Source: Flectonema sp. DT1601 (Eukaryota). Taken from it: a stretch of DNA of 64,000 nucleotides. How positions within the stretch are numbered: the first letter of the stretch is position 1; each line of letters begins with the position of its first letter. The position numbers and the translations under genes are program-made. Under the pieces are notes generated by a model. The model was not told the DNA's origin. It was given only the letters and a program-made list of their open reading frames with translations, and made no database searches. The stretch lies in the NCBI GenBank assembly GCA_964019425.1, contig OZ025797.1:806001-870000 (forward strand), read 5' to 3'. Shown piece after piece: positions 7,989 to 34,900 of the stretch.

Positions 7989-10900
7989 TCATCCAACTGT
8001 ATCCCCACGTGGGGACATCTCACGTGTCTGAGTAGTACTCGCAACTGCTCCAAATACGTCTGTTGGTGAGTCATCAAGTTTCTTAGCACCTTCATAAGGT
8101 CGTATGAATACCCACCAGGTACCAAATAACATTATTACTAACAGTACTCCAGCTACAACAAAAATCAATACAAGTACAGCACCAGAAACTACATCTTCTG
8201 ATGATGTTTTAATTATGACGGGTACTTCAGTTGGTTTCTCTGTTACGACTGGAATCTCAACATCATCTCCTCCTGTTTTCGGATCTTTCTCAACATTAGA
8301 ACCCGTCACAATATGATACGGAGGTACGTAGTCACTGAATTCTCCAGAGCGTTGTGTCGCTGACTTGTTTGCTTCTCTGTTTTGATATTATTAGAAACCT
8401 CCCTTCTTGGCAATTAAAAGAAAACAATTATAACAATTCGATTTACAGTAAAAACACATACCCAGTCAAAGCTTCACTACATTCAAGCAGCTGAGAGGTG
8501 TTTCCGGTAAGTGAAATGTCAAGTGTTGTATTCTGTTTGTTTGTTTTATTATGTCTCGTCTTTTCGCAATAAATCACTAAAACTAAAAAGGATTTAAGTA
8601 AGTTAACATACATATATCAACCCATCCAAGGTCACTACAGATCTTGAAGCTCCAGGTGAGACGACACACTGTGACCATAAAGTCTTTGTTAAGTATTCAG
8701 GGCATACTCGAGAGACAGAGACTATGATATCGCTACACTTTAAGAGATTCAATATAATTGAAATAACGTCTTGAGGATTAACATTGATGGGCTGCTTTTG
8801 AATATGAATTCTATAAGTAGACGACAGAGACGACTGATCCGGTACATCAGTTTGTACAACATCAGGAGATACCGTCTGTGGTGTTGGAGTTACTGGAGGT
8901 GGTACTGTTGGTTTATTTGGTTTCCAATCTGAATCGCTACCCGTAAAGAAGACTGCTAATGTTGCTGGTAATCTTTCAACTTGGCAACTTGCTTTTCCGT
9001 TGCCAACATGTGCTGTGACAACACCTGTTTGACTCCACGTATTGTCCGATTCTTTTATCGCACAACTAAAACCTGTCGACAACATCTGATGCTGACATCC
9101 TTCACAAGTAATATCAATAACATGATATGACTTTTCTATTTCTGTAATATTCGGTGAGGCATTCTTGACACTCACGACTCCACTGACAGCTTTCCATGTG
9201 GAGGGAGTCAGGTAGACATTAGCAGAGCGACCCATCACAACAATCGAAAGCCATTTCTCCCCAACGGGATATTCAAGTTTTCCAAATGATAAATGAATTG
9301 AGAACTCATTCACAGATATACTTCTCTGAACATTACGACCAGCAGTCAAAGACAACTTCACAACAGATCCAACGTGTGCTCCAGCAAAGCCAGCAGGAGT
9401 AATGTAAGGCACTTCATTAGTAACACGACTTGCAAGGACTGCATAAAGAAATGCTTCCATCACGCTATCAATTGCAAGATTAGCTTCCATTGTACTCGCC
9501 GCAGATCTGTTGATTGACTGCAGATAATATTGCATATTACTAACTGCGCGCAGAGTATTACTTTGGAGAATCTCAGGATTTATATCAACGAGTGCATCCC
9601 AAGTAGGTAGTACCACTACAAGTAACTGACAACAGGTAATAATGTCACTAACTGATGTCACTGGAGTTACATCAGACAGCTGTGCTATTGCTGATATAAC
9701 TTGATGTGGTGACAGAATAATTCCAGATCGAATCTGAGCATTCTTCACATCCACATACTGTTGAAGTAATGATTTCTCTCCCCCAACCTGCAACACAGAA
9801 ACATGTCGACTGAGTCCCGTCCCAAGTAAAGTAGCTCTCTCAGTGTCTAATATGGCTGCACACATACTCAGGTAAGCGGATGGATCTCCACCTTGTTGTA
9901 AAATGCTATTTATCGACGCCATACAAGCGGCATTCGTATCAGTCGTGGGTGCTGCGGTCACATAAACAAAAGTTGCAATTTCCCCAACAAGTCCATTCGC
10001 ATCCCTCACTTCAGCTTTGATTTCAAGACCTTCAGGAGCTTCAGGAAGAATGATGTTACTCAGTACTGTTGCTGCTTCAAATCCATTTGTGAGGAGCTCC
10101 GTGGTACCCGGCAGGTAGGGCATTGTTGCAGGACGAATGTATGAAATTTGATAAGTAAAAGGTCCACTTCCAACTACTTCACCAACAGTGAATGTCCAGG
10201 GAGATCTTAAAGCAATTCCAACAGTAGTATCAGTCTCTGAGCAACCCATTATTGTTGATGTACATACTGCACTGAGTCTACTCATTTCTGGTGGTGCAAA
10301 AATATCAATTTCTCTTGTCGCGCACACCGGAAATACTCCAACTGCCGCGCATAACTCGAAGACATATCTCCCAGGCTCTAAGACCCCTCCGTTTACCTTT
10401 ATAACACGACTTCCTACTATTGGTGTAGAAGTCATCGTGTCTTGTAACTTCAATCCAGAAGGGGATGCTATTCTCCAATAGAACAAAGTATCAGAAAGTG
10501 GCAAGTTAGCACCGCCTGTCATGACAGTTGGAGTCATGTGACTTTGAGGGGCAGTGTCATGTGAAATAGTAACAACGAGATTAGGATCAGCGCTTTGATA
10601 AGATTCGTAACGATTAATAATTTCAGTGGTATCCTCCGCATGAGGACAAACATATATTTCATCAATCGCTACATTTGGAGTACCAATTCCAATCTCAAAC
10701 TCATGATCGCTTTCCGGTTGTAGAGGAGTTGAACTCAACGAAGCGCCGTCGCAAACCTGATTAACGCAAATAAAGACGTTGTTGCTCTTTATGATAGCCG
10801 TCAAGTACTGCCAACTGTTGGTGTTGAGAGCCTGCGTTGATGTAACTCTTGAACTGCTATCAACTTCAACAGATGGAAACAGTTGCTCATTCACTGGGTC

Positions 10901-13900
10901 AACGAGAATTGTGTACCCACGCTGTCCATTAGAATCTGTCAGCCGAATAAGTGGGCATCCTGACTGCGATATGCACCACTCGAAGGAATCGAACTTAACC
11001 CAAAACGAGACGGTAAGCTCTGGCCACCAGAACTTAGCTCCGTCAGCAGTAAATGTTCTCCCGTCGAGACGCATTGCATAGTCGGTGAGGCTGGGGCCGA
11101 ATGGTGAACTCTCAAAGTTAAAATCACCAGGTACTACTGATGATAACATGTATGGAATAATTAATCCTTCAACAGGAACAACTTGAACGTCACCCGATGT
11201 AGAATAGCTCTTCGTGAAGGAAACACTTTTAGTGGTTTGTTGCATGTGGAAGACGTAACAAAGTTCATTTCCGGTATCGTAACCAGCGTATTGAAGCGAA
11301 CATGTTCCAGCAGCAGCAGATGAACAAGCAACGGCAGTACAAGTATCATCCTGTCCTGGTAGATCACAATGAAGAACTTGAATAGGAACAGTTGTTCCAG
11401 AAGCAAGGAATCCATTTACAGCCATCGGGATAACAATCACAATAGCTGAGTCAGAAGTAGAAAGAATTGTTGCTTTACGAGTACCAACCTTTACAATAAC
11501 TGAACCGTCTTGGTTAGATAGCGGAAGATTCGCTCCTTCGATTACAAGTTGTCGACCTCCCTTCCAGTTTGACACTCCGGGAGATGTCTTTTCGATGATA
11601 CGAGTGTCAATAACTTGAGAGTACTTGCGAATCAAATCGCTGGTGGAGTAACCCTCATCACAGATAATTATTTCTTCTAAATTAGCAAACAGGAAGTCCG
11701 ATTGCGATACACCCTTTCCAATAGTCAGACTGCTGACATCAACATCCCATAATAGTGTTGGTGTAGATCTTATGATGGCAGACAAATCACAATTATTATT
11801 AACGCAAATTGAAATGTTTGAACTTGTTAACGACGCAGCTACAAAGTAATAATCATTCTTCAAAGTTCCCGTAGTAGATGACAACAACTCTGAAGAACTA
11901 ATTGAGTACACTTCACCACTACCATCGGACACAGAGAACGTAACAGAAGCAGTACTGGTAGCACCTTGTCTTTGAAGTGTTAAAGAGTAAGATGCTTGAG
12001 AAGATGTTTTGTGTAGGATTGTCACTACTCCGTTATCACTACCGAGGTTACTGAAAGCATTAAATCCTGGAATCTGAATCCAGACGATGATCGAAATATC
12101 ATCAACGAATTCAAAGTCAGCACTCGCAGACGACAACTGAGAACCGCTTTGAGTTGCTGCATCATAGCCGTTGAATTTGAATGCTGCTCCTCTGTCAGTA
12201 GTGACATACGCATCACAAGTGCAAAGAATAACAGTTTCACACCCACACTCTGCCGTAACAGTCGGAGACAGTGAGGGGTACATAGGACTTAGTGTTTGTT
12301 CATTAAATTGATAAGTATGACACATTGATGCAGGTTCTGGAGGTGTTTCAGAACAATCAGGACCAGAGTAACCAGTACTACACACACAGAATGCTACTTC
12401 AGTAAGAGGGTTTTCAAAACATGATCCGTGACTGCTACAAATAGTACCACTTGTTGTAACTCCCGGACATGGTGATGAACAAGATAATCCTTTCCATCCT
12501 GACTCACATGTGCAAACACCAGTTCCAGTAATGCCATCATTACAAGTTCCATGATGATTACAAACTTTACTATCAACTGTTGGACATTGTGATCCACATG
12601 ACTGTCCAAATGATCCCGCGAAGCAAATACACTCACCGTCTCCACCAATACCATCGTTGCACATTCCGCTATTGCAATTCAAACAAGGAGTGCAGGATGG
12701 ACCAAAGTAATTAGCAGTGCAGCGATCGCATAATTGTCCAGCAAAACCTGTGGCCCCACAATCACAACCTGTTGATGAACAACTTCCATGACCAGAGCAA
12801 GGCGCTGATATTGGAAGAGAGTTAATAACTAAATTAGCAGTAAATGTGTGCTGACCTTCATAGATATCTTCTAAAGTCACGTCGACAACAAATGTCTGCT
12901 TCCAGAGGGAAGCCGCATGATATTGCTCAACTCGTAAGTCAGAAAGATGAATATCTCCATTTGCTTCCATTATTGACATCAGTTCGGTACTATCTCCTTC
13001 GACATCATTTGACTTTCGAATACGTGAGATTCTAAAGGAATTCAGAATGGATGTATCAATTAATAACAATGGCACTCCATTAACAACATGAGACACGTAA
13101 ATTCTTCCAATTCGATCCCCTTTTATAAACTGTTGTCTGTCTGCAGTACTTGTGACGAATATCGCTGAAAATTGTGGTTGCTCAAGGCCAACCTCAATCG
13201 TGAGAGAGACAGTTCCGTCACATGACGACATTTCGATCTGATTACCAGCTGTGTAAGTACCAACGGAAACAGGACTGAATTGATAATCTGTCGCAATAAT
13301 GAGGGCTCCATTTGGGTACACATCCACTAGTAGTGTGTTTGTACCGCTCGTCAGTGAGATGGTTGTTTTCGACGAAAGTTGAATCCCGTTGATGCTGAGC
13401 ACAATACCACCTGAGTTGATTCTCCAATTGCGATCAGCCTTCGATACCAATCCGCGAGAAGATGGAACCGACAAGTGACTTCCCTCTCCAATCTTAACAC
13501 CAAATTTATATTCCGGACACTGCGGTAATGTTGTAACTTCTTCAGCTGGTTGTACTTTTAGATTTCTAAATATCGCATCCCTGCAGTCAAATGAGAAGAA
13601 TCCAGTCCTAGAAGACTCCAACAGCTGTAGTCCTAATGGTAGTACTCCGGAATATATCTTTTTATTGTCAGCGAATACAATTAATTGCTGAGTTGTTGGA
13701 TTAACGTAAGCCTCGATATATAAAGAAGTTTGTTCCAACTTATTAACTTCTTCATCAATCGCAAGTATTGTAACACCAGCTTGCGTCTCACCCATGAAGG
13801 CATTCGTCCAAGAAAGCTTTGTTTCAAATGTTCCCTTTAGTCGAGCGACAACTACTTCTGAGTTTCGTACAAATATTGTAACACAATCGACGTAGGTGTC

Positions 13901-16900
13901 TCGGAGTTCTTTTGGTGATGAAAGTCCTACAGTTAGTCCGTATGCACCCCCGTTGTTACTTTTCGTTACTTCACTTCCAATTAAAGCTGAAACTTGATAA
14001 GTTCCAGAAGTTGAGAAAGGAGTAACGTACCATCGAGGTGATATTGTTCCGACAGATAATTTTAATTTTGTAGAAGTTGAATCAGCTGATGGTTCAGGAG
14101 CTGCACAAGGTTCAGAACATGGACCAACAGTAAGGAGATTTCTCATATCAAGTGTTAGTTGAGAAGTGCTGACTGCTTTCGATGATTGCGGTGAAAGTAG
14201 AACAGCATTCTGAGTACATATCCATTTCTTCTTTGTACTACAAGGACTGTCAACCCACTTCTTCCTTCCCAGAGATCTGATGTGTGAAAGAGAAGCGCAT
14301 CTCCCGTAGTTGTCCGGGCGTCCATCTTGCCAGAAAGTCATCGACGGCTCTACATAATCCGTTCCTTCCCAATACCATCCATTCCACAATCCTGTTGGAA
14401 GCTGCAGTCCAAACCAAACATCATCACGTGAGAGCTGTCCAGCAAAGAGCGACTTTTCTTCAGCATCAAGTCTTCCTAATGCTGCACTCATACTGTGGCA
14501 TGACCAAAGAGCTTCTGACCAAGTTCCAACTGTGGTAGACTCTCTGTAACAAGTAGATCCTGATAAATGCCATCCACTACTACATTTATACTTAGCTCTA
14601 CAGTTAACTTCACATCCATCACCTGACCAGCCGTCTGTACAAATGCAGCTGCCAGTATCGGTACAGATACCTCGTCCGTTGCAAACACCAAAAGTTGAAG
14701 AAGAAGCTGGGCATTCGTATTGGCATTCTGATCCGACAAAGCCGGGATGACATTTACACTTTCCTTGTGTTTCATCACTGCATCGACCGCGACCAGAGCA
14801 TGGCTTCAGAATACCACCAGGACATTCCCCGTTACATGCTGGATAGGCGAACCTTCCAAAGGAACACACTCCACATGCAGTTCCCGTAACATAAGGATTA
14901 CTACATTGACATCCCTCAGATGAACACAAACCCTGACCAGAACATATTAAAGGTTGCTCACTAGACATTGATGCTAAGTAATCAGTAGTACTGCAGGCAC
15001 ACCCAACAGGTAGGTTACAACTACTCGACACTGGAATGCAAGTATCTCCACAAGGGATTGTTCCGACTGCGCAAACAGAACAACAAATTCTCTGCGCAGG
15101 AATTGCAGTGAGACAAGTCTTTGTGCATCCAGTGCCGTAGTGGTCGCTGTCGCACGTGCACTCTCCGGAGCCGGTTCTGCCATGTGAACAGGTTCCTTTA
15201 TTGTTGCAAACAGAATTTGGATATCCGGGGCATCGACCTCCGCACCCTGGCCCAAAGGTACCTTCAGGGCAGTCACATATTCCAGTTGTGGAATCCAACG
15301 GATTTGGTTTGCATCGATTTTGATCTCCACAAGCAACTTTCTCATTTGGGTCAGAAGTCGGTACATTACCAAGAGGTGTAAAGGGCGGAGGCATCAGAAA
15401 TGATAGAGGCTGCTGAACTGCGAGATCTAATGACCTCACGGAATCAAAAAATAAAACCTCTACATCAGAACTGCTGCCATCAATAGGACCACCCTGTTCG
15501 TAGTCAACTGGAATGGCGCACCTCATTTGACAATTAGTCGCTGCAATCCATCCTTCTGATACTTTACAAATCTCACAGTTAGTACCTGACCAGCCAAAGG
15601 AACATGTGCATGCACACTTATTCAACTCTTCATCAACGTGAGCCGTTCCTCTATTTCTACAAAAGGAGTCGGTGCACTGACAGGAGTACTCTGTTCCAAT
15701 ATTTGTTGGAACTAATGTCTGATCACAATTAGTACAATCCGCATTGAATCCAACAGGACAGGAATCACAAGCTCCACTACTGTCACTTGTTGAAGTTGGC
15801 ATCCAGAAATCATAACAGCTGCAGCTATTGCAATCACCTGATAGATTGTTTTCATACTGCAAACAAATACCGTGACCATCACATACTGGTATGCAGTCAG
15901 GGTAGTTATGATATCCAACAGCACACCTGTCACAGTTATTGAGAACATCAGAGATGTAATTAGAAGGACATAATTCACAACTATGACCAGTCCATTGATT
16001 TAAACAAGTACACTCACAAGAGGATCTTAATTGATTACTTGTTACTGTTGATGAATGTGTTGGACCATTACATGAGATTGATAATTGACATTCGGTACAA
16101 ATATTTTCAATTGGATCAAAGACCCATCCTTCAAGACAAACACTACAATCACTTTCAGGATCGAATCCGAGTAAGCAGCTGTTACAGTTTGCAGACGACT
16201 TCCAATTATTACGACAGGTACACGTGCAGCTATCGCTATTAGTGTTTGATGTTACGGATATCGCATTTGAGTTACAATGAGTTGTTACATCACAAATAAT
16301 ACAATCAGGGTAATTAATAAATCCAACAGCACATGAACTACACTCAATATTCGATCCGAGTGGTGCAGCAATCACAAAGTTTGAAGGACACTGACTACAA
16401 TCTGATGATGTCCAAGAACTACTACAACTACACTCACAGCTACTCTTATCTAAAGCACTTTCAACTGATGTAGCGTGACTGCTACAATGTACTTCTACAT
16501 CACATAAAATACATTCATCGTTACTCCATGAGTATCCCGTAGCACAAGTATCACAATTAACACCTGAGTACTTACTAGGACAAGTCTCACATTGTATTCC
16601 TGTCCATTTATTCTCACAACTAGTGCAGGTACAAACAGCCTGGTCTGTACCATCCTGAGTGATTAAACCATCAATTGAAGTACCTCTGTTATTACAGTGA
16701 TCTTGTGATGTGCACATTAAACAACGAGGGTAGTCACCAAATGATAAAGTTGTTGTTATTGCATTCCAAGAAGTAGCGCAGTTGTTGCAATCAGATCCCG
16801 TGAATCTCGATGAGCAAACAGAACAGTGAGGACCTGACCAACTATTCCTACAGGTGCATATACATTCATCATTTAGTGAAGACACAGAAATAGCGTGGTC

Positions 16901-19900
16901 ATTGCAGTCACTTGTTTCTAAACATTTCCTGCACGTTACTCCGACATAACCCGAAGCACATCCAACACAATTATTATTGACATCATACTTTGGAGGACAT
17001 GTTGAACAATCGTCTCCAAACCAATTACCTGTACAATCACACACACAGTCATCAGCTCCATCGTTTGCAATAACAGAACGTGCATTAGATGAACAGTGTT
17101 GGTGAATATCACAAATAGTACACTCTGGGTAATTAATTCTGTTGAATGAGCAGGTCTGACAATTAGAATCAACCGAATAACGTACTGGACAATCACTACA
17201 AGATTCACCTGACCATTGATGTTGACAAACAGGACAGCTACATGACAATCCATCACTCGAAACTAAAGCAGCGTTACCAGAACAGTGAATGTTGTTAGTG
17301 CATAAAGAACAATCACCAGAAGGAAGCATTTCAAATCCTTCCTTACAACTCTGACAGACAGTTCCTTGGTAAGGATGAATACAATAATCACAATTCGCTC
17401 CCGTAAACCGATCAGGACACTTGCACAGACAATCTGTTTGTGAAGTAGTCGATACGATTTCAGCACCACCTGCAGTGTTACAAGCTGAAGTGATAGATTG
17501 ACAAGAGTCACAGTTTGGATAATTAATATGACCAGTCTTACATTTATTACAAGCTGCTACGTACTTTGAAGTATCGCAAGTGTTGCATCTATCTCCAGTC
17601 CATTGATCTGAGCAAGTACAGATACACTGAGTTCGTTGAAGATTCGCAGTAACAGAATGAGCGTGTGAGTTGCAATCAACTCCAATAGAACATTCTTCAC
17701 AAATATTATTATCTGTAATAACATAACCAGGAACACATGTAGAACAGACTTGTTCATCATCTTTAGCATACGGAGACTCACAACCGTCACAGTACTTGCC
17801 GGAATATTTAAAGGCGCATCCTGCATTTGGATCGCAGATGCATTCGTCGTTTGATGTGATTATCGAAATACAATTCTTTAAGTGAGGGTGTGTTAGTAAA
17901 TCACAATAAGTACAAACTGGGTATTGAACATAATTAGTTTTACAAACTCCACAATCAGATGAACTGTCGAAGCGATTATCACAAATAGAACAAGATGGAC
18001 CAGACCACTGATTGCGACAGTTGCATTGACACTCGCTGTTTATTTCAGATACTGATAAAGCATTACCATTACAATCTGTAGCTACATCACATGGTCGACA
18101 AGTCGGGTATTCAACGTAACCAGATTCACATTTAGAACAACTGCCTCCTGTAAAACCAACTTCACAATTACATTTGCAGGTTCCTAAGTTGCTGTTAGCA
18201 GTAACCGCAATAGCATTGCCGCTACAACTCGAGTCGACGCTACAAATAACATCACAACTTGGGAAGTTCAAAACGTTATCAGCACACGCAGTACAATCAC
18301 TGTTGAATGCAGTTGGTGAAGTTCCGCAAGATTGGCAACCAGAACCAGTCCATGGGATTACACAAGAACACAGACAGGCAGCATTATTTAAAGTCTTTGA
18401 ATAACAACTTGTAGCTATATCAATACTATCCGATACTATTGATTGAGTTATTGAATAGTCTGAACAGAACAATGAATTCCATTCTAATAAATTATCTGAT
18501 TGTGGAATCGTATCGCTGTGAACAATACATTCCATACGATCAGTGTTATAAGAAACTCCTAAACATTCTGACTGACAATGTTGAATACATTCCTCGAGTG
18601 TTGTTGTTGATTGTTTTGCCCATCCTGAGGCGCATGAAAACTCACCAAAACACATTCCACTTCCAAGTCGTTTAAAATAATTAGTAACTTGACCAACTGT
18701 AACTGATGAGCTGTGAAGAAGTCCATTGCAATCAGTAGAAGTGCTGCATAAACTACAAACACCACTTGGTAGTAATAAATGATTATAACCGCACTCATCA
18801 CAGTTACTACCTGAGTATGGGTAAGGACAGATTGAACAATCGACTTCAGACCATTGATTGTCACATTCACAAACACATATCCCGTTGAGTGATTTAATTA
18901 TTCCACGACCTGAGCACAGAGTTGCGCTATCGAGTTGGTCGCATTGTTTACAAAATGGAAATGGTGAATCACTTCCTGCAGCACAGGAGTTACATAAATT
19001 ATTATTTTGATCAAATATATCTGGACAGGTGTTACAACTACTACCCGACCATCCATCAATACAGACTCCACACTGACATTCAGACTGGTCAGAGGTCGTA
19101 CTTATTGTTAAAGAATGACTGTTGCAGTGAATGTCGATATCACACTCTACACAATTCGGATATCCAATCATTCCGTGAGCACATCTATCACAATTATCTC
19201 CAACAAAAGGATACGGACATATCGAACAGTCATATCCAATATATTGACCAACACATTCACATTGACAACTTACTCCATTAGTTGTCGCAGTACCATGTGA
19301 TGAACAATATGTTGAATCGCATACTTTACAATTTGGATATCCAAAGTAAGATTGAGAACAAGAATTACAAGTAATTTGATTATAAATAATTGGACATTGT
19401 GAACAGTCAGTGCCGTACCAATTATCAGAACAGCTACAACTACAATGAGATCTGCTAGAGTCATGAGTAACTGATAAAGCATGACTACTACAATGATCAG
19501 TAGTCGAACACTTAACACAGGATGGGTAACCAATTCTACTATTCGCACATCTGTTGCAGTTTGTTCCTCCGTACTCCGCAGGGCAAGTTGCACAACCAAC
19601 ACCCGTCCACTGATTGTTGCATTCACAGCGACAATTAGCTTCAGTCGCATTAAACCAAACACTTACCGCTTGATCATTACCTGAACAGTGTTGATCGATA
19701 CTACACTGCGTGCATTGTGGGTAGCTGATGTAACCGAATGCACATTTATCACACATTTCACCCGAATAGTTTTCAGCACATTCACAGATGCAGGAATTCC
19801 TTGAAGGAGATGAAGAAACAGAAGTTGCAGTAGAAGAACAGTGAACATCAATTGAACACTTTATACACGACGGGTAGTTATGATATCCATCTGCACACTC

Positions 19901-22900
19901 TCCGCAATCAGCCAACAGATTGTACCTTTCGGGGCAGGTGTTGCACATCGTTCCTGTCCAGTTATTCTTACAAAGACAGTGGCAGTTGTTATCAATAACC
20001 TGTACAGATAAAACTCCCTCACCACATTGATGAGTACTACAAGAAATACAGTTAGGTGGTAAGCCATAGTAACCTGAAGCACACTCGGAACACGTCGTCG
20101 CATCTAAAGTTGTGGGGCAGCTGTCACAAGTGGAACCAATCCAATTTCCAGAACATTGACAAATACAACCTGACGACGTCGGATTTACTATCGCCGTTCC
20201 GTGAGCACAAAGAGAAGAGTCGCACGGTAAGCAAGTCGGATATTCAAATCGACCGGCAGCACAAGTGTCGCATCCGTCTCCCTGAAAGATTTCTGGGCAC
20301 TGCTCACAGTACTCTCCAAACCATTGACCTCTACAGGAACATATGCATCCTTCTGCTTCTGTGAAAATAGCTGTTCCACGGCCCTCTATGCATTGTCTTT
20401 GAACGCTGCACGGTACGCAAGCATTTTGAAGATTTCTGACGTAGCCAGAAGCGCAGTTAGTACATTCAGTTGCGTCATATTCCATCGGACATTCCGAGCA
20501 AGTCTCACCAGACCAAAGACTGCTGCACTCGCAGATACATTGCGTGTTGTCTAAGTTACTCATCGTAGACGTGGCGTGGTTAGTACAGTGAACTGATATC
20601 TCACATCTGATGCAACTTCCTCCAACTGCTGCTATGAAACCAACTGAGCACTGGTCACACCGAGAGCCTGCGTAGCCTTCATCACAAGTACAGGTGCAGG
20701 CAGTTTGATCTAAATTAGTACCAACTACTCCATGATCATTACAACTATTTACTGAAGTACATTCAATGCAACTGTTGTTTGTGTCATGAATCCAATTTGA
20801 TTGACAAGAAGAACAAACATCTGATAATCTGTTCTCTGAACTGCATAGTGCGCACCCCCCTGCTGGTAAGTTGTAACCAGCAGCACATGTTGAGCAGCCT
20901 GTCGTCGCATCAAACTGACGAGGGCAGATACCACAATTAGGACTGAGGTAATTTGCTAAACATTCACATTCACAAGTAATCCCATCGGTAGTAGAAACAG
21001 AAGCAGCTCTTCCATTACAGTTGACATCAATAGAGCACTGAGAACAAGTTGGGTAATTTAATAAACTCATACTTGTTGTAGCACAGCTATCGCAAGTGAT
21101 TTGATTATATCTTTGTGGACAGGACTGACACTGAGTGCCATCCCACTGATGGTCACAAGTACATGTGCAAGAGAGTCCATCAGATGACGGCCAAGCAACT
21201 CCGTGATTATTACAGTGAGTGCTGCTGCATTTTTCACATGTTGATATCGATGTCGTTACTTTTTTGAAGTAACCGCCAACCTGATCACATTCACTGCAGT
21301 CAGTTCCTTTAAAACCAGGTTTACATTCACAACTACATTCTGAATTACCTCCGAATGATGTAACTGATAAAGCATTATTACTACAATGAGTACTAACAGA
21401 ACAACTAATACAACTTCCATCGACATCAAGAGTGTATCCTCTGATACAAACACTACATGTTGACTCATCGTAACCCGTTCTACAAATATCACACTTTGAT
21501 CCCGTCCAGTGTGACTTGCACTGCTCACAAACGCAGGTCAATAAGTCAACAGAAGGAATAACTAAGAGTCCATTATTATTACAATACGAAGGGTCTGTAC
21601 AGTCTACAGGTTCTACTCCGCTTGTAGGGGCGGCAATAGAACAGTCGAGACCAGACCAGTCTGGTAGACAATCACAAACACAAGTATTACTCTGTGTTGC
21701 TGTTACAGACACAGCTCTGTTACTACAATGATCTGAGTTAGTGCAGAGTGTGCATCCACCCAAAGAGTTTGTTATGTAGAGTTGTGATGAATCACATGTA
21801 CTGCAATCATTATTGTATCCTTCTGGGCACTGTTCACATTGATCTCCGTACCAGTTATCGTTACAAGTACACAAACAAATTGTATTGAGACTGTTACTGA
21901 ATGCTATTCCATTTTGATTACAATGAGTGAAGTCAGAACAGATAATATCACATTGTGGATATCCAATAAATCCATTCTTACAGGTGTCACAGTTTCCTGT
22001 AATGATGTCGTATTGAAGTGGACAATCATCACAATAGTCACCAGTCCATTGATGATCACATGAACACTTACAACCACCTTCGATATTGTTTCTATCTGCT
22101 GAGGGTGTTCCCCTGCCGTTGCAGAAGCCAAGCTCTGATAACTGGCAGTTAGAGCAGCCTTCACCTTTTGTAGTTTCGTAATTCATAAATCCAGGACTGC
22201 AGGCGGCGCAATCAAGCGCATCGTTATACCTCGTTGGGCAGATATTACAAGAGTCTCCAGTCCATTGGTTTCTGCAAGTACAGACACATCCATCTTGCGC
22301 AGTAGTTGTCGTCACAGCAGTCGCTCTGTTATTGCAGTGAGCTTCACTAGTGCATCCTCCACATATTGGATAGTTAACATAACCTGATCCACAACTGTCA
22401 CAATTATCTCCTGTGAATTGGGACTTACAAATAGAACAGTCAAATCCTGACCATTGATTATCACATTCACAGACACATGAATCTCTTTGAGATGATGAAG
22501 AGATTACTCTGCCGTTTCCAGAACAGTGGACAGCGTCGTCGCATTGCGTGCAAGTCGGGTAATTAATAAAACCAGGAAGACAATCAGCGCAATTCAGAGT
22601 TGGATCGAATGGTGAAGGACACGTACCGCACGCAATACCACTCCAATGGTTGGAACAACTGCAGTCACAAGTAGCTGTTAGTACTCCATTCCTACAAGAA
22701 GTTGAATCACATTGTGTACACATTGGATAATTTGTGTGATAGTCAGCACACTTATCACAGTTAACTCCGTCAAAGTTTGATGGACATGTCTGACATTTCA
22801 TTCCAGACCATCCACCAACACAATTACAGATGCACTCTGTTTGTGAAGGGTTTGTTCCAATCACAGCACCATTAGCATTAGAGCAGGCTGATGCTAAAGT

Positions 22901-25900
22901 AGAACACTCAACACAGTTCGGGTAATTAATTCTACCCACACCACATCTACTACAATCAGATGACTCATCAAACTCTGATGAGCAGATTGTACACTTTGAT
23001 CCTGACCACTTGTTCCTGCAGTGACACTGACAGCTATCATTGATATCGTCAATACTAATAGCAATCGCATTCTCACTGCAGTCTACAACATTGCAAAGAG
23101 TGCAGGTGGGGTATTGAACTCTTCCAGCTGCGCACTTGTCGCAGTCAGCAGCGTCAAATTGCGGGGGACAGACAGAGCAGTCAAAACCAGTCCATTGAGA
23201 TCTACATGTGCACAAACACTTGTTGTCATTTGTTCTAACTACTGCTTCAGCATTCTGCGCTCCCGAACAGTGAGTTGCCAAAGTACACTTCTCTGTACAA
23301 TCTGGTAGTAAGAATAATGAAATACATTCACTACAATCTAATCCGGTGAATCCTGATCTGCATGTGTTACAAGATTCCCCAGCCCAGTTACCACTACAAG
23401 TGCAAAGACAGTTTCCGTTAGCCGATGAAACATCGTCAGCGTTACCGGAACAGTCAACTGCGACGTCACATTTTCGGCATACAGAGTTTTGCTGTACGAA
23501 ACCCGTCGCGCATTCGACGCAATCACTTCCCCTTGTGTAGCCTTCAGGACATGTCGAACAGTCTGTTGAGGCCCATTTGTTTCTGCAGGTGCAGATGCAG
23601 CCGCTGTGTTGTGACATAGTTGGGTGAGTATGTGTGAATGATGACACTGTCGTGGCGTGGTTAGAACAATGGACATCAATAGAACACGGAACACAGTCTG
23701 GGTAGTCAATGTAACCTGGTGAGCAACTATCACAGGCAGAACCCAGGTAACGTTGCTGACAAGTACACAAACAAACTCCACCTTCTGCGATAGTTGAAGC
23801 AGCATGACCACTACAATCTGTTAAGGAGTCACACTGTCTGCAGTTAGGAAACCCAACATAGTTATCAAGACATCCATTACAGTTCTTATTACTATCGAAT
23901 GGTTCTGCACATGTTTCACAAGAAGAACCTGTCCATTCATTTTGACAACTGCAACCACACGTTTCTTGATCTTGTTTCTTAATACTTTCAACAGCATTAC
24001 CTGAACAGTGAATATTAACATCACATAATACACACGATGGATAATTTAATCTATTAGGTCCACAGCTGTTACAAGAATCAGAAAACTTACTAAAGTCACA
24101 TTCGGAGCACTTGTTTCCTTTCCACTGGTCAGAACATGTGCAGATGCAGCTGCTGTGGATGTCATCAGATACAACAGCTGTTGCATGCCCACTACAGTGA
24201 TAATTTATAATACATTCTCCACATTGTGGATAACCAGTTCTTCCGACTGTACACTCTCCACAGTTCTTTGACGCATCGAATATCGAAGGGCAGGTTTCAC
24301 AATTTGCTCCAGTCCATTGATTCTCACAATCACATACACAAACAGTTCTCGAAGGATTAGAAGTAACAGTTGTCGCTCTTGAATTACAATAAGCAGATGA
24401 TGTACATTCTTCTGTACATCCCTGAGAGTAATTAATGAACTTAGTAGAGCATTTGTTGCAGTTGTTACCTTCAAAGTTGTCGGGACAGGTTTCACAAGAA
24501 GTACCTGTCCAGTAGTTGTTACAGACACAAGAGCATTCAGTCATGTCAGAGTTTGTAGTGGAGACTGTTCCATGTGATGAACAACTGATTTCATTTGTAC
24601 ACTTTGTACAATCTGGATATAAAATATGCATTGATGCACACTTTGAACATCCATCATTTGAATTATATTTTTGAGGGCATGTTTGGCAACTTGAACCAGA
24701 CCACATTTCATCACAATCACACACACACACCAAATGCATTCCACTTGATGTTACTTGTGATGCATGTGAACTACAATGTTTATCAATACTACAATACTCA
24801 CACTCTGGATAATTAATATATCCGTCAGCACACTGTGAGCAGTCTGATGAAGACACGAAGTTTAACGAACACGTTTGACATGAAGAACCACTCCACTGAT
24901 TCCTGCAACTGCATTCACAAGTTGGGTTTACACCACCTGGTGAAGTGACACCAACAGCGTGATTTGAACAATGGCTTGCTATGTTACATGGAAGACAACT
25001 ATGACCGTAGTATCCAATTTTACACTCATCGCAGGTTGTTCCTTTCCATCCAGTGCTGCAAGTACAAACACATTTATCATTATACTCATCAGATGTAACA
25101 TGTGAAGCATGTCCATTGCAGTTAATATTATTATCACACATCACACATCCTAATTCATATTTCACATATCCAACAGCACACTCATTGCAGTCAACACCGC
25201 TAAACTTCGGATGGCAATATGAACAGTCAGCTGTTTCCCAACTATTTCTACATCCACACAAGCATTTGTTTTCAGATACGATTGATGAAACAGTAACAGC
25301 ATTACCATTACAATTAGCAGTCTTTGTGCACTCAACACAAACACCATCAACTTCAATACATCCAACTTTACATATTGGTACTGCTTCTGAACAGTCATAA
25401 GTACCTGGACAACTATCACACCTGTCTCCAATATATGGATGTTTGCACTCACAAGAACAGCCATTTGACTCGACGATACTCGAAACAGAATGACCATTAC
25501 AATAGGAGTCATCACAAGTCACATCGCAGTCAGGCCAGTTGAAGATGTGCGCCGCACACTCACTGCAACCAATGCCACCGTAATTCGTAGGACACGACTC
25601 ACAACGAGCGCCAGTCCACGGGAATGAGCATCCGCTACACGTGCAGACCAACGGATTCTCAAACGAATCCGTCCCAACAACACTCGCACGACTGTTGCAG
25701 TGCTGCACATTCGTACACAGCAAACAGTCCCCATTGGCCTTCACGTATCCTTGAGCACATCCATCACAAACATCTCCCACTTCCCGGAACCGCACAGGAC
25801 ACTCTTCGCAGTCACTCGCCTCAACCCACCTTCCCGTGCAGCTGCAAGTGCACCTCGTGCGGGCAGCATTCGACGTCACAGACGAACTGTGTCCGAAGCA

Positions 25901-28900
25901 ATCATTCTCAACAGAGCAAGCCCTGCACGAAGATCCCGCAACAACGTACCCCACAGCACACAGCTCGCAGCGTGACCCCGCGTATCCTTCGTTGCAGGCA
26001 CAATCACACTCAGTCTGTGCCCCATTTGCACTCGCCACTCCGCGGCTTCCGCAGTGAGCGTCCCCACGACACTCCTCACAAAGCTCGTTGTATCCGCTCC
26101 CGAGGATGTGGTTGCTCGCACACTTCCCGCATCCTCCGTTCGTGTCACGGGCAAACGTCGCAGCACACTCTCCGCAAGCCAATCCCGTGTAACGGGTCTT
26201 GCATTCACAGTCACACTGCGTCTTCAGCCCATTCACTCCCCAAGATTTCGCATTCCCGTTGCAGTTCCCGACATTCGTGCACATCCCACACGTCGGGTAG
26301 TCGTATCGCTCCGCCCCACACTCCCTGCAGTTCGCAGTAACGTCGAATTCACTCGGGCAGTTGTTGCAGCTCGTCCCCGTCCACTGGTGCACACACTTCG
26401 TGCAAGTGCAAGTCAACATGTTCATGTCCACCTCAATCACACCGTCTGACCTGCTGTTGCAGTGGTCCTCGCTCGTGCACTCGTCGCACACGGGGTATCC
26501 AACACGTCCTCCCGAACACGCGTCGCAGTCCGATCCCGCGAATCGTCCAGGGCACGTCCCACAGAACTCACCTGTCCACTGCGTCCCTGCCTTGCAAGTG
26601 CACAAGCACACGTTCCCGTCACTCGTCACAGAATCCGCGTGACCGTTGCAGTCCCCAGCCACCGTGCACTGTCGGCAACCCGGGTACTCCACCCTCCCCA
26701 CAGCACAGCTCCTGCAGTCTGGATCCACGCTGTAGATCTCCGGACACGTCGAGCAGTCCAATCCCGTCCACTGGTGTCGGCAGTCGCAAGTGCATCCATC
26801 GATCCCTGCTGCGTGGTTCGAACAGTCATCTTCAACAGTGCAGCGAGTGCACGTCGGGTAGTCACGGTAGCCATAAGCACAAGCATCGCAGTTTCGACTG
26901 CTGTCGAAGCGAGTCGGGCAGTAGTCACAAGTGTATCCCGTCCACTGCGCAACATCGCAGTTGCACACGCAGATTCGACTCGCGAACCCGACAGGTGTTT
27001 GGGTTTCCGCTGTCGACGCCCTTCCATTGCAAATAGCATTCGTGCACGGCTCGCATGTCGGGTAATTGTCTAGACTCGACGGCGCACATGTGTCACAGAG
27101 TTCAGTCTGCTCGTACCTAACCGGGCACCGGCCGCAGTGGTTGCCTTCCCAAGAGTTGTCACAATCGCATTCACAACCATCACCATCAACATTAGGAGCG
27201 GAAGTTCCATGATTGTTGCAGTCAGAAGCCACACACAACCTGCAGCCCATAGAAGATGTCGCGCTACCGGCATACCCCATTGCAACATCGCACACACCAC
27301 ACGTCGACCCGGTGTAACCTTCCGAACAGCTACAGAGGCAGGAAACCCTCCCAGGATTTGGTGATGCTGTCCCGTGAGAGTTGCAGTGATCCCCAGATGA
27401 ACAGATCTCAACACACCTACTTGAATACCCAATTCGGTTCCCAGAACACACATCACAGTCTGTTCCTCCGAACTCGAGTGGACACAGAGAGCAATCGTCT
27501 CCACTCCACATGTTCCGACATTCGCAACCGCACACCCGTTGAAACTCGTCGGCTGTTGACGTAGTCGCATGTCCCCAACAGTGAAACTCAGGAGTGCACA
27601 ACGTGCATCCATGGACCGGATCATCAACGTGGTTGGCAGCGCACCTATCACACTGAGTTCCACCGTACCGTATCTCACATGTGCCGCAATCAGTGCCACT
27701 CCAGTAGTTGCTACAGGTGCACTCACACGCAGTGTTGCCAACATTTGAAGTTGATCTAGTTGCGTGACCAGAACAGTGACCAGAAATGGTACACTTTTGA
27801 CATCCACTCGCGATATCGATGTGCCCAACAGCACACGAAGTACATCCGCTGGAGAATGCGAAGCCAATCTTGCAGCTTTCGCATGTTGGAAGTGCCCAAT
27901 TTCCTTCACAAGTACAGAGACAGTTCAGGTTTCCAATGGCTGAAGTTACAGAAACAGCGTGTCCATGACAATGACCAGATGAAGTACAAGCAGTGCATTC
28001 ATCGAATGTAATGTATCCCACTGTGCAGGAGTTGCAATCCTCGTTGCTGTCGTGTTTGGCTTCACACAGTTCACAACTATCTCCGTGCCACTTGTGCTTG
28101 CAGTTGCACACACAGGCATCATGTGCCTGGTTAGATGTTGTTACATAGGCATGTGCAGAACAGTGAGTAGTGACATCACACTCATTACAGGATGGGTAGT
28201 TGATGTACCCAACTGCACACTGGCCACAAGTAGTACCAGCAAAACCTATTGAGCATGAGCACACACAGGAAGTGTGCTGAGTGTTGCTGTATAAAGAATC
28301 AGCATTACCATTACAGTGAGAAGTTATATCACACTGAACACAATACTCAATCCCATCTTCAATATATCCATCTGCACATGTCAGACAATCAGAAGAATCA
28401 AATCTTTGATCACAAGAAGAACAGCTGTCACCATGCCAGTGGTCATGACATGAACAACCACAAGCAGCATGATTTGCGTTTGCTGCTGCAGCACCATGGG
28501 AATTACAATGTTGAGAAGGGTTACAAACTTCAACACAATTATTCGGGTAGTCAATGCGGTCACCTGAACAACGATCGCAGTTTATTCCACCAAAAGCACT
28601 CGGACAGATATTACACGAAGGCCCTGACCATTTATTAGAACAACTGCAAACACACGCTGTGTGCCAGTGATTAGAAGTCACATCAGATGCATGAGAATTA
28701 CAGTGATCTGCAACTGTACACAATCCACATTCCGGGTAGTTCCCGGAGTAACCTTCGGCACATTGACCGCAGTTTTCGTTCGAATCGAATCTTTCAGGAC
28801 AGGTTTGACATTGAAGTCCAGTCCAACTATTTTTACATTCACATTCACAATAAATGTGATTATCATTTGATGTTGAACTGTGTGAGTGTTCAGTTGATGT

Positions 28901-31900
28901 ACAGTGTGTTGACACATCACATACTTCTTCACAACCTGACTCATATCCAATACGACCATCAGAACAGCTACCACAGTAAGGTCCAGAGAACTCAATTGGA
29001 CATACACTGCAGTCAGCACTTGACCATTTATTTGAACAACTACAAACACATTCAGTTGGATTACCATCGACATCATTCTCAGTGCCAGTAATAATTCCAT
29101 TATTAGAACAATCATGAACAGTACATAGTCGGCATTCAGGACCTACTCTGTTGGTACCACATTCTGTACAATCTGATGACACGGTAAAACGTTGGTCACA
29201 AGTTGCACAAAACAAGCCGAGCCAGTTTGCTTTGCAATCGCAGGTACACTCCAAACCGTCTTCAGACGACTGTACATTGACCGCATTGCCTGAACAGTTA
29301 GCAGTTGCCTCACATAAAATACAACTCGGATATCCATATCTGTTATCAGCACAACTATCACAAGATGATGAATAAATATCTGAACAGTCACTACAAATTG
29401 AACCCTCCCACTGGTCAGCGCACGTACAAACACAACCATCGTGCAGTTGATTACTAATTACAAACGATGAGTGACCACTGCAATGTGTTGCAGAGCTACA
29501 TGGATCACATGAGGGCCAGTTGATAAATCCTAGAGAGCATCTCTCACAAGCGGCACCTTCGAATCCAAAAGTACACTCACAGACACATCCTGAATGATCA
29601 TCATTGCTAGTGATATAAACAGCTCTGTCATTACAATCAATTACTGAAGAGCATCTCCTACAATTGTTATCATTCACAACATAATGAGTTGCACAACCAC
29701 TGCAGTCATTTGCTACCTCATATTGAACTGGACAGCTAACGCAACTTCTATCATCTTGCCATTGACTTCTGCAACTGCATACACAGCGATTCTCAGCAAC
29801 ATTTGAAGTTACACTAATCGCATTATTATTACAATTACTACTAACAGTACATGCAACACATAGTCCATCAACTTCAATGTATCCAACTGAGCAGATTGGA
29901 ATAATACTTGAGCAGTCGTATCCAACAAAACAAACACCACAAGTATCTCCCTTGTATGGATGCCTACAAGTACACTTGCAATCATTGTTTTCTACTACAC
30001 TTGTTAAAGAGTGACCACTACAATAGGAGTCATCACAAGTCACATCGCAGTCAGGCCAGTTGAAAATACTTTCCGCACAAGTATTACAGCTAGGCCCTCC
30101 GTAATTCGAAGGACACGACTCACAACGAGCGCCAGTCCACGGGAATGAGCATCCGCTACACGTGCAGACCAATGGATTCTCAAACGAGTCCGTCCCAACA
30201 ACACTCGCACGACTGTTGCAGTGCTGCACATTCGTACACAGCAAACAGTCCCCATTGGCCTTCACGTATCCTTGAGCACATCCATCACAAACATCTCCCA
30301 CTTCCCGGAACCGCACAGGACACTCTTCACAGTCACTCGCCTCAACCCACCTTCCCGTGCAGCTGCAAGTACACCTCGTGCGGGCAGCATTCGACGTCAC
30401 AGACGAACTGTGTCCGAAGCAATCATTCTCAACAGAGCAAGCCCTGCACGAAGATCCCGCAACAACGTACCCCACAGCACACAGCTCGCAACGTGACCCC
30501 GCGTATCCTTCGTTGCAGGCACAATCACACTCAGTCTGTGCCCCATTTGCACTCGCCACTCCGCGGCTTCCGCAGTGAGCGTCCCCACGACACTCCTCAC
30601 AAAGCTCGTTATATCCGCTCCCGAGGATGTGGTTGCTCGCACACTTCCCGCATCCTCCGTTTGTGTCACGGGCAAACGTCGCAGCACACTCTCCGCAAGC
30701 CAATCCCGTGTAACGGGTCTTGCATTCACAGTCACACTGCGTCTTCAGCCCATTCACTCCCCAAGATTTCGCATTCCCGTTGCAGTTCCCGACATTCGTG
30801 CACATCCCACACGTCGGGTAGTCGTATCGCTCCGCCCCACACTCCCTGCAGTTCGCAGCAACGTCGAATTCACTCGGGCAGTTGTTGCAGCTCGTCCCCG
30901 TCCACTGGTGCACACACTTCGTGCAAGTGCAAGTCAACATGTTCATGTCTACCTCAATCACACCGTCTGACCTGCTGTTGCAGTGATCCTCGCTCGTGCA
31001 CTCGTCGCACACGGGGTATCCGACACGTCCTCCCGAACACGCGTCGCAGTCCGATCCCGCGAATCGTCCAGGGCACGTCCCACAGAACTCACCTGTCCAC
31101 TGCGTCCCTGCCTTGCAAGTGCACAAGCACACGTTCCCGTCACTCGTCACAGAATCCGCGTGACCGTTGCAGTCCCCAGCCACCGTGCACTGTCGGCAAC
31201 CTGGGTACTCCACCCTTCCCACAGCACAGCTCCTGCAGTCTGGATCCACGCTGTAGATCTCCGGACACGTCGAGCAGTCCAATCCCGTCCACTGGTGTCG
31301 GCAGTCGCAAGTGCATCCATCGATCCCTGCTGCGTGATCGGAGCAATGCTGTTCAACAGTGCAGCGAGTGCACGTCGGATAATCTGTGTAACCATAAGCA
31401 CAGATGTCACACGTTGCCTGATCAAATCGCGTTGGACAATAATCGCAGGTATAACCTTTCCACTGCGCAACATCGCAGTTGCACACGCAGATTCGACTCG
31501 CGAACCCGACAGGTGTTTGGGTTTCCGCTGTCGACGCCCTTCCATTGCAAATAGCATTCGTGCACGGCTCGCATGTCGGATAGTTGTCTAGACTCGACGG
31601 CGCACATGTGTCACAGAGTTCAGTCTGCTCGTACCTAACCGGGCACCGGCCGCAGTGGTTGCCTTCCCAAGAGTTGTCACAATCGCATTCACAAACATCA
31701 CCATCAACATTAGGAGCGGAAGTTCCATGATTGTTGCAGTCAGAAGCCACGCACAACCTGCAGCCCATAGAAGACGTCGCGCTACCGGCATACCCCATTG
31801 CAACATCGCACACACCACACGTCGACCCGGTGTAACCTTCCGAACAGCTACAGAGGCAGGAAACCCTCCCAGGATTTGGTGATGCTGTCCCGTGAGAGTT

Positions 31901-34900
31901 GCAGTGATCCCCAGATGAACAGATCTCAACACACCTACTTGAATACCCAATTCGGTTCCCAGAACACACATCACAGTCTGTTCCTCCGAACTCGAGTGGA
32001 CACAGAGAGCAATCGTCTCCACTCCACATGTTCCGACATTCGCAACCGCACACCCGTTGAAACTCGTCGGCAGTTGACGTAGTCGCATGTCCCCAACAGT
32101 GAAACTCAGGAGTGCACAACGTGCATCCATGGACCGGATCATCAACGTGGTTGGCAGCGCACCTATCACACTGAGTTCCACCGTACCGTATCTCACATGT
32201 GCCGCAATCAGTGCCACTCCAGTAGTTGCTACAGGTGCACTCACACGCAGTGTTGCCAACATTTGAAGTTGCTCTAGTTGCGTGACCAGAACAGTGACCA
32301 GAAATGGTACACTTTTGACATCCACTCGCGATATCGATGTGCCCAACAGCACACGAAGTACAATCGCTGGAAAGAGCATATCCAACCCTGCAGCTTTCAC
32401 ACGTTGGAAGTGCCCAATTTCCTTCACAAGTACAGAGACAGTTCAGGTTTCCAATGGCTGAAGTAACAGAAACAGCGTGTCCATGACAATGACCAGATGA
32501 AGTACAAGCAGTGCATTCATCGAATGTAATGTATCCCACTGTGCAGGAGTTGCAATCCTCGTTGCTGTCGTGTTTGGCTTCACACAGTTCACAACTATCT
32601 CCGTGCCACTTGTGCTTGCAGTTGCACACACAGGCATCACGTAATAAATTCGTAGTGACATATGTCGCGTGACTGGAGCAGTGAACATCAATATCACACT
32701 TATTACAAGATGGGAAGTTGATATAACCGACAGCACACCTTTCACAAGTGAGCCCAATAAAACCTGTTGAACATGAACAAATACAGGAAGTGTGTTGTTC
32801 GTTGCTGCCAGTAAAATCAGCGTTACCGTTACAATGAGTTGTGATATCACACTGCACACAATGGTCGATACTATTTTGGATATATCCATCTGCACATGTC
32901 AGACAGTCAGAAGAGTCAAACTTCGGATCACAAGTAGCACAATTAGTTGCAACATGCCAGTGGTTATCACAGGTACAGTCACATGCAGTGCGTAAAGTAT
33001 TTGGTGTTGCCATTCCGTTAGAATTACAGTGCTGTGATGAACTACATATCTCAACACAATCATTTTGGTAGTCAATACGATCTCCTGAACATTCGTTGCA
33101 GTCGATGCCACCAAATTCTTCCGGACAGACTGCACACGCAGATTCGGGACCAGTCCACTTATTAGTACAGCTGCAAACACACGCTGTGTGCTGCTCATTT
33201 GAAGTAACAGTCGAAGCATGTGAACTACAGTGATCGATAGTTGTACACAATCCACATTCCGGATAGTCTCCTGTGTAGCCTGCAGAACACTGACCGCAAT
33301 CTTCGTTTCTGTCAAATCGCTCAGGGCACGACTCACATCTATCTCCTGTCCAACTGTTACGGCAGTCACATACGCAAGATACTCTGTTCGCATTGGATGT
33401 TGCGGAGTGTGCGTGATCTTCAAAGCAATGAGATGCTGTTGTGCAAACTTCAACACAGTTGCTGTCGTACCCAATGCGACCTAGAGCACAAGTATTGCAA
33501 TCTGCTCCTGCAAACTCTTGTGAGCAAATACTACAATCAGAACCAGACCATTTATTATTACATTCACAAGTACAAGACGTATGTAAGTCATCTGTTCCAG
33601 TAGGTGTTCCATGACTAGAGCAGTCTGTAGGTACACAAAGTCTGCATGTGGAACCAATTCTGTTTGCTGAGCATTTCAAACAATCGGATTCTTCGGTATA
33701 TTGAACAGTACAGGTTTCACAATAATCACCACTCCAGTTATTACGACAGTTGCAATCACACACCTGACCTTCTTCGGATGAAACAGAATTGTGAGCGTGA
33801 TCAGAACAATTAGCACTCGGTGAACACAATATGCAATCCGGGTAGTTAAATCTATTTAATGAACATCTATCACATTCACTACTAAATAATGATGAACATT
33901 CATCACACACATCACCACTCCATTGATCAGAACACGTACACAAACAAGATGTGTGCGTAAGATCTGAAGTTGTTAACGAAGCGTGTGTTGAACAATGAAC
34001 ATCTGATGAACATAAAACACAGTTCGGCCAATTAATAAAACCAATGTCACACTTCTCACAGTTATTACCAGCAAATCCAACATCGCACTGACACAAACAT
34101 ATACTGTGTTCATCATTACTACTAACACCTGATTGCTGTGCGTGACTATTACAATCAATTTCTGCTCTGCATTGCCTGCAGTCACTTGCTTCAGTAATAT
34201 AACCGGTTGCACATCCACTACAATCATTAGTTATTTCAAATCTAGTTGGGCAAGTTGAGCAGTCGCTTTCTTCTGTCCATTCATTTTTGCAGCTACAAAT
34301 ACAACGATTCTCTGCCACATTTGAAGTCACACTAACAGCATTGCCACCACAATTATCAGCTACTGTGCAGACAACACAATTACCTTCTACGTCAACATAT
34401 CCAATTGAGCAGATTGGAGTCTCACCTGAGCAGTCGTAGCCCAAAAGACAACTACCACACTTAACTCCAATATATGGATGTTTGCACTCACAAGAACAGC
34501 CATTTGACTCGACGATACTCGAAACAGAATGACCATTACAATAGGAGTCATCACAAGTCACATCGCAGTCAGGCCAGTTGAAGATGTGCGCCGCACACTC
34601 ACTGCAACCAATGCCACCGTAATTCGAAGGACACGACTCACAACGAGCGCCAGTCCACGGGAATGAGCATCCGCTACACGTGCAGACCAATGGATTCTCA
34701 AACGAGTCCGTCCCAACAACACTCGCACGACTGTTGCAGTGCTGCACATTCGTACACAGCAAACAGTCCCCATTGGCCTTCACATATCCTTGAGCACATC
34801 CATCACAAACATCTCCCACTTCCCGGAACCGCACAGGACACTCTTCGCAGTCACTCGCCTCAACCCACCTTCCCGTGCAGCTGCAAGTACACCTCGTGCG

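Follow-up and report, generated by a model that had tools for sequence, protein, structure and literature searches.

Two short introns very probably give a giant EGF-repeat protein of a likely diplonemid its membrane anchor

The window, i.e. the whole stretch of 64,000 nucleotides that was analysed, has five long open reading frames (ORFs), all of them on the minus strand. Most of it is taken up by a giant coding exon (8612..64000, minus strand), which contains no stop, provides at least 18,463 codons ahead of the first intron and is open at the window end. Read without splicing, this frame ends at 8603 with LIYVC and a stop, 18,465 stop-free codons counted back to 64000. Intron 1 (8533..8611, minus strand) is 79 nt long and in phase 0; it runs from GTATGT through an A-rich part to ACAG and has an in-frame TAA 6 nt in. 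It is followed by a middle exon of 71 nt (8462..8532, minus strand) that encodes the fourth conserved cysteine of the juxtamembrane domain, with an in-frame coding score and an order as in the homolog P0001, see below. Intron 2 (8377..8461, minus strand) is 85 nt long and in phase 2, and also runs from GTATGT to ACAG. The last coding exon (7989..8376, minus strand) contains the end of the juxtamembrane domain, a stalk, a transmembrane helix, a tail and the stop. The spliced join of the giant and the small ORF has a single stop, at 7991-7989 on the minus strand. Within the window the spliced product has 18,615 aa, about 2.0 MDa, which is a lower bound as the frame continues beyond 64000.

An earlier note on this DNA had proposed the two introns of 79 and 85 nt, the 71-nt exon and a frame kept into the ORF at 7989; these coordinates and the resulting 164-nt difference are correct, and a retained intron 1 does bring in the stop 6 nt into the intron, since that is the stop on which the unspliced giant frame ends. 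The same note described the unspliced protein as apparently secreted. Secretion is not something that the window shows, as the frame is open to 64000 and no start codon or signal peptide lies within it. It had also stated that the small ORF lacks an ATG of its own; there is indeed none upstream of the helix, but an in-frame ATG is found inside the helix (8132, 47 codons).

Over most of its length the giant protein consists of EGF-like Cys-rich repeats, with 11-16% Cys per 500 aa. The chain has 13.4% Cys and 184 matches to the repeat pattern C-x-C...G..C, and Pfam EGF families match near the C-terminal (3') part only. On the minus strand towards the 3' end follow a C-type lectin domain (14213..14524; Pfam PF00059, E 5.3e-12, 46.9 bits at a cut-off of 22.6), an IPT/TIG domain (11363..11596; Pfam PF01833, E 4.4e-07) and a laminin G-like (concanavalin A-like) domain (10655..11020; Pfam PF13385, E 2.4e-12, the best of two such stretches). 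EGF, laminin G, TIG and C-type lectin are all extracellular-type domains, lie N-terminal to the helix and score above the Pfam cut-offs. The next region (8933..10618, minus strand) is low in Cys and in alignments colinear with P0001. A REJ-like character of the first part comes solely via another homolog, P0002, whose stretch aligned to the window has a Pfam REJ match (E 2.3e-08); the window protein has no significant direct Pfam REJ or GPS match. At 8933-9100 lies a degenerate stretch that, judged by eye, is a GPS-like candidate. The cleavage residues of this GPS-looking stretch are missing in the window protein and in P0001 and present in the end of P0002; pairwise against P0002 the stretch gives no significant alignment (E 47). 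A Pro/Ser/Thr-rich linker (8822..8932, minus strand), with 53% S+T+P over 38 aa, separates this region from the juxtamembrane domain.

Within the EGF array, between about 25300 and 51400 of the window, a block of ~489 aa occurs five times in frame, with copies starting near 51226, 42424, 36136, 31615 and 27097. The copies are 92-97% identical at the DNA level, and in all 10 pairs they show 10-35 synonymous against 1-12 non-synonymous codon differences per pair. Because the copies differ mostly at synonymous codons, the giant frame is real coding sequence under selection. An assembly duplication as the source of the internal repeats is ruled out, as the five copies are mutually different, mostly synonymously. 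The GC3 of the block is 0.63, compared with 0.27-0.32 in two other measured stretches, and gene conversion or a foreign origin are possible explanations. A Cys-poor island is located within the array at about 43700-44800; its F5/8 type C (discoidin) hit is weak (E 3.6e-4) and under the Pfam cut-off.

The juxtamembrane domain has four cysteines and ~115 aa, extends across all three exons (8313..8821, minus strand) and is in cysteine register with P0001. A stalk of 45 aa separates it from the predicted transmembrane helix of 26 aa (8103..8180, minus strand). The helix reaches a Kyte-Doolittle hydropathy of 3.36 (19-mer), while the maximum anywhere in the giant frame is 1.94. The predicted cytoplasmic tail of 37 aa (8102-7992, minus strand) has Arg and Lys-Lys after the helix.

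The family of the four-cysteine domain was searched for in several ways. In the Atlas, the juxtamembrane part of P0001 was connected to SEA (0.83), collectrin, MSB2_C and CD34 clusters, all of them leads below 0.9. Pfam SEA has no match at E up to 1 in P0001 or in the exon-1 half of the window domain. When the P0001 domain was modelled from its single sequence, the pLDDT was 49.8 and the best structure match had Z 5.5, and among the best 50 structure matches listed for this poor model there is no SEA chain. Another single-sequence model was also poor (pLDDT 38.2). A further structure search with these models has no hit with E below 0.001, and solved structures searched with the alignment A1 gave no match at E up to 1. 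An SEA-type autocleavage motif was dropped as a candidate, since P0001 does not share it. A SEA-like nature of the domain is a lead only, and we do not file the domain as SEA.

The two introns closely resemble known introns of Diplonemidae. According to the portion of PMC12621601 available to us, these have a (G)/GTATG donor, a CAG acceptor and median lengths of 41-107 nt; in the tract before the acceptor A is commonest in D. japonicum, with a weak tract in two other species, and a branch motif is found in just 8-16% of the introns. Both introns of the window follow this U2-type consensus with a GTATG donor and a CAG acceptor. Their lengths of 79-85 nt are within the medians and they are A-rich instead of having a polypyrimidine tract, with an A content in the 20 nt before the CAG of 70% in intron 1 and 45% in intron 2. 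Intron 2 has YTRAY motifs at 18 and 41 nt before its end, and the last 50 nt of intron 1 contain none. Set against that portion of the study, neither intron shows a noted difference. The arrangement of the long ORFs on one strand also resembles D. papillatum, where genes are arranged in same-strand clusters (PMC10161547, in the sections available). From the splice signals and from the origin of the homolog P0001, the host of the gene is likely a diplonemid.

Such a join is rarely produced by chance. Dinucleotide shuffling of the 279-nt gap gave any stop-free GTATG/CAG join in 16 out of 5,000 cases, and as so few shuffles permit it, more than chance appears to be at work. A stop-free join with GTATGT and ACAG was obtained once in 5,000 shuffles, and two GTATGT were present in four out of 5,000. 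Excision of both introns creates one open frame, in which the introns score as non-coding and the exons as coding. The coding scores come from a Markov model with a period of three, for which other coding and non-coding stretches of the window served as training data. The 71-nt exon reaches log-odds of +13.7 in the frame predicted for it (-5.0 and +2.9 in the other frames) and those of the last exon are +34.8 in the splice-predicted frame (-20.5 and -27.0 in the others), while introns 1 and 2 have negative scores in all three frames. The GC content is 0.27 in both introns compared with 0.41-0.42 in three exon stretches.

The last 760 unspliced residues were searched with phmmer against 1.84 billion representatives, which resulted in two matches. 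The best one, P0001 (E 1.3e-64), is the product of the EukProt Trinity transcript Hpha_TRINITY_DN16660_c1_g1_i7 and has 1,040 aa as recorded. The label Hpha presumably stands for Hemistasia phaeocysticola, a diplonemid according to a lineage lookup. P0001 continues past the unspliced stop, with the domain end, stalk, helix and tail. The order of parts is the same over ~900 residues (laminin G, REJ-like, linker, four-cysteine domain, stalk, helix and tail), and as in the window protein there is one hydrophobic helix near the C-terminus and a short tail. However, the recorded sequence of P0001 does not contain an EGF array.

Aligned to P0001, the spliced product extends to query residue 907 with 286 bits and the unspliced one to 748 with 259 bits; with composition adjustment the values are 226 bits to 883 and 220 bits to 748. 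For the 152 aa behind the first junction, the score against the P0001 end is 98, a value reached by none of 5,000 shuffles, or by one in 5,000 if the helix stays where it is. The juxtamembrane cysteines are found at 28/39/51/87 in the window protein and at 27/40/52/87 in P0001. On its own, the 24-aa exon peptide gives weak support: 925 of 20,000 shuffles match its score against the expected P0001 segment, and for P0001 as a whole the number is 5,979 of 20,000. This homology support comes from one informative homolog with about 28% identity. The claim that the two introns give the giant protein a membrane anchor is backed by the splice signals, by the coding scores and by a colinear homolog derived from a transcript. 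Judged from the sequence, the giant and the small ORF very probably belong to one gene, in which we infer the splicing; the product would be a surface protein with a single membrane pass and 18,615 aa or more. The repair of the gene model is correct but ordinary, and the introns belong to a known kind and are ordinary too; the anchored protein is unusual for its size.

Other searches for homologs added little. A word-indexed search among 1,657 candidates of 5,500-17,500 aa gave one match, P0005, through EGF repeats only, and with the last 760 aa it gave no match at E up to 0.001 among longer proteins. With the alignment A1 the word-indexed search found no match; it missed even P0001, so these blanks are all weak. 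A metagenome scan gave 148 pattern matches, none of them confirmed, and the Atlas has no usable match for the last 760 aa. The ends of P0002/P0004 and of P0005 have no strong hydrophobic helix (maximum 1.38 and 1.95, respectively); these are ENA records, whose gene calls may not allow for introns.

The gene could be the same and still encode a membrane protein with the ends of intron 1 elsewhere, for example at 8638-8560, also 79 nt long. Among the paths with GTATG and CAG at every site the proposed one is the best of eight, and in alignment to P0001 it scores 137, against at most 112 for all 71 one-intron paths. By the homology score alone, however, it ranks 45 among 4,645 in-frame GT-AG paths, and the exact ends of intron 1 are not fixed by homology because the top path shifts both of them by 27 nt. 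The path through 8638-8560 scores 152 against 137 and keeps the cysteine spacing. Its gain stems from a low-complexity stretch, and its donor GTAGTG and acceptor AAG deviate from the Diplonemidae consensus, as far as the available portion of PMC12621601 describes it. Moreover, the 81 nt before 8611 are coding in frame and the whole of 8611-8533 scores as non-coding, which makes the shifted ends very unlikely. It is highly improbable that the locus instead consists of two genes, one for a secreted giant protein ending at 8603 and one for an independent small membrane protein, whose separate transcript would receive its spliced leader at the AG of 8377 or 8533. Spliced leaders in Euglenozoa are added at AG acceptors and genes form same-strand clusters (PMC10161547, in the sections available), which agrees with five long ORFs all on the minus strand here. 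However, the first four ATGs past either acceptor are out of frame, yielding 1 to 22 residues, and the first in-frame ATG of the small ORF sits inside the helix. P0001 carries both parts in one chain, and two genes would leave two perfect donors (4 of 5,000 shuffles) unexplained. That the gap represents a broken 3' end, a pseudogene or an assembly error has an almost negligible probability. The 164 nt are low in GC, score as non-coding and are bounded by four consensus splice sites, unlike a frameshift or misjoin, and their removal restores the cysteine spacing to within one residue of P0001.

The earlier note also suggested that retention of intron 1 would switch the protein to a soluble isoform. 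We find this unsupported: an in-frame stop is the default in such an intron, and the cut splits a conserved domain. In a wider form of the idea, intron 1 or intron 2 would be kept, or the 71-nt exon skipped, on purpose, with a soluble 2-MDa form besides the anchored one as the result. All three outcomes do stop ahead of the helix and add 2, 5 and 14 new residues, the cysteine gained through retention of intron 1 could pair with the third cysteine, and the isoform number i7 in the name of P0001 implies other assembled isoforms of its gene. Intron retention and exon skipping also exist in genes of D. papillatum, where alternative splicing concerns about 5% of multi-exon genes (both from the accessible sections of PMC10161547). 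However, 92-93% of shuffled introns have an in-frame stop, for intron 1 within three codons in 25%, and the added Val-Cys is merely the GTATGT donor read in phase 0. Retention of intron 1 leaves 70 of the ~115 residues of the four-cysteine domain and loses the fourth cysteine; the truncation falls between the third and fourth conserved cysteines and does not leave the domains whole. The two donors are identical and full consensus, with no hint of a weak site. The stop of a retained intron 1 is 141 nt upstream of the second junction; the 50-55 nt rule of decay comes from mammals. As diplonemids are reported, in the part of PMC11888146 available, to have UPF1, UPF2 and UPF3, retained-intron RNA would likely be decayed. 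We regard deliberate retention or skipping as unlikely.

It is equally improbable that tethered and released forms of a 2-MDa EGF-repeat protein are chosen at the very end of a gene of more than 55 kb, within its final 240 nt. The candidate routes to a released form, to which we assign the same small chance, would be the 79-nt intron kept, or a spliced leader that competes at an intron acceptor and leads to polyadenylation of the upstream RNA ahead of the anchor exon. The second route takes its lead from a kinetoplastid gene, for which alternative trans-splicing at a cis-intron has been raised as an untested possibility (PMC11613528, in the portion available). If true, Euglenozoa would have a membrane/secreted switch like that of IgM, acting on a single-pass protein that is one of the largest, and a regulated soluble form would be a rare switch of this kind in a protist; nothing here points to it. 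A literature search, with subscription journals mostly outside, did not find soluble isoforms through intron retention in protists.

We suggest that the major spliceosome removes the two short GT-AG introns, most likely constitutively, to give a type I single-pass protein in what is likely a diplonemid protist. Transcripts with a retained intron would be faulty by-products, likely cleared by nonsense-mediated decay. Outside the cell, disulfide-bonded EGF-like repeats would form a long chain, followed nearer the membrane by lectin-type and Ig-like domains, namely C-type lectin, laminin G and TIG, and then by the four-cysteine domain, the stalk, the single helix and the 37-aa tail. Judged by its domains alone, the giant protein most likely serves for adhesion or as a coat: tethered to the cell, it would bind glycans or particles away from the membrane. 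Through the introns, a protein of 18,615 aa or more, nearly all of it from one exon of more than 55 kb, would be placed on the cell surface. At more than 18,615 aa it would rank with the largest membrane proteins that have a single pass. Little is known about the surface coat of diplonemids, which are abundant protists of the sea, and a tethered EGF-repeat chain bearing a lectin is a testable candidate for adhesion or prey capture. Gene calling that is blind to introns drops the membrane anchor of such genes. Giant EGF-repeat membrane proteins in diplonemids were not found in a literature search with subscription journals mostly outside; supplements may list such genes.

The protein shares features with several known systems. 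Like MUC16 and other transmembrane mucins, it has a very long repetitive ectodomain, a compact juxtamembrane domain, one helix and a short tail. However, its repeats are Cys-rich and EGF-like and not O-glycosylated Ser/Thr/Pro, and there is no Pfam SEA match. MUC16 has about 14,500 aa, so the window protein is larger. Polycystin-1 and the REJ-GAIN receptors have C-type lectin, Ig-like and REJ-like parts before a GPS; similar parts, the REJ-like one solely via P0002, precede the GPS-looking stretch here. They differ in having eleven or seven helices instead of one helix and a 37-aa tail, and the window protein is without a direct REJ/GPS match and has not kept the cleavage residues. In the switches of IgM, MUC1/SEC and HLA-G5, an early stop also lies in an intron just upstream of the helix exon. 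Here, the stop is inside a conserved domain and not after it, and is known from genomic sequence alone.

Downstream of the giant gene, three same-strand genes are located at 1144-2529, 2825-3868 and 4581-6317 (minus strand), together with an ORF that runs off the window start below 326; all are seemingly intronless. The three complete ORFs have no Pfam match. The ORF at 1144-2529 and the cut ORF below 326 start with hydrophobic, signal-anchor-like stretches. A CAG after an A/T-rich tract is found 17-22 nt before the ATGs at 326 and 3868; it resembles the intron acceptors, and both sites are candidate spliced-leader acceptors.
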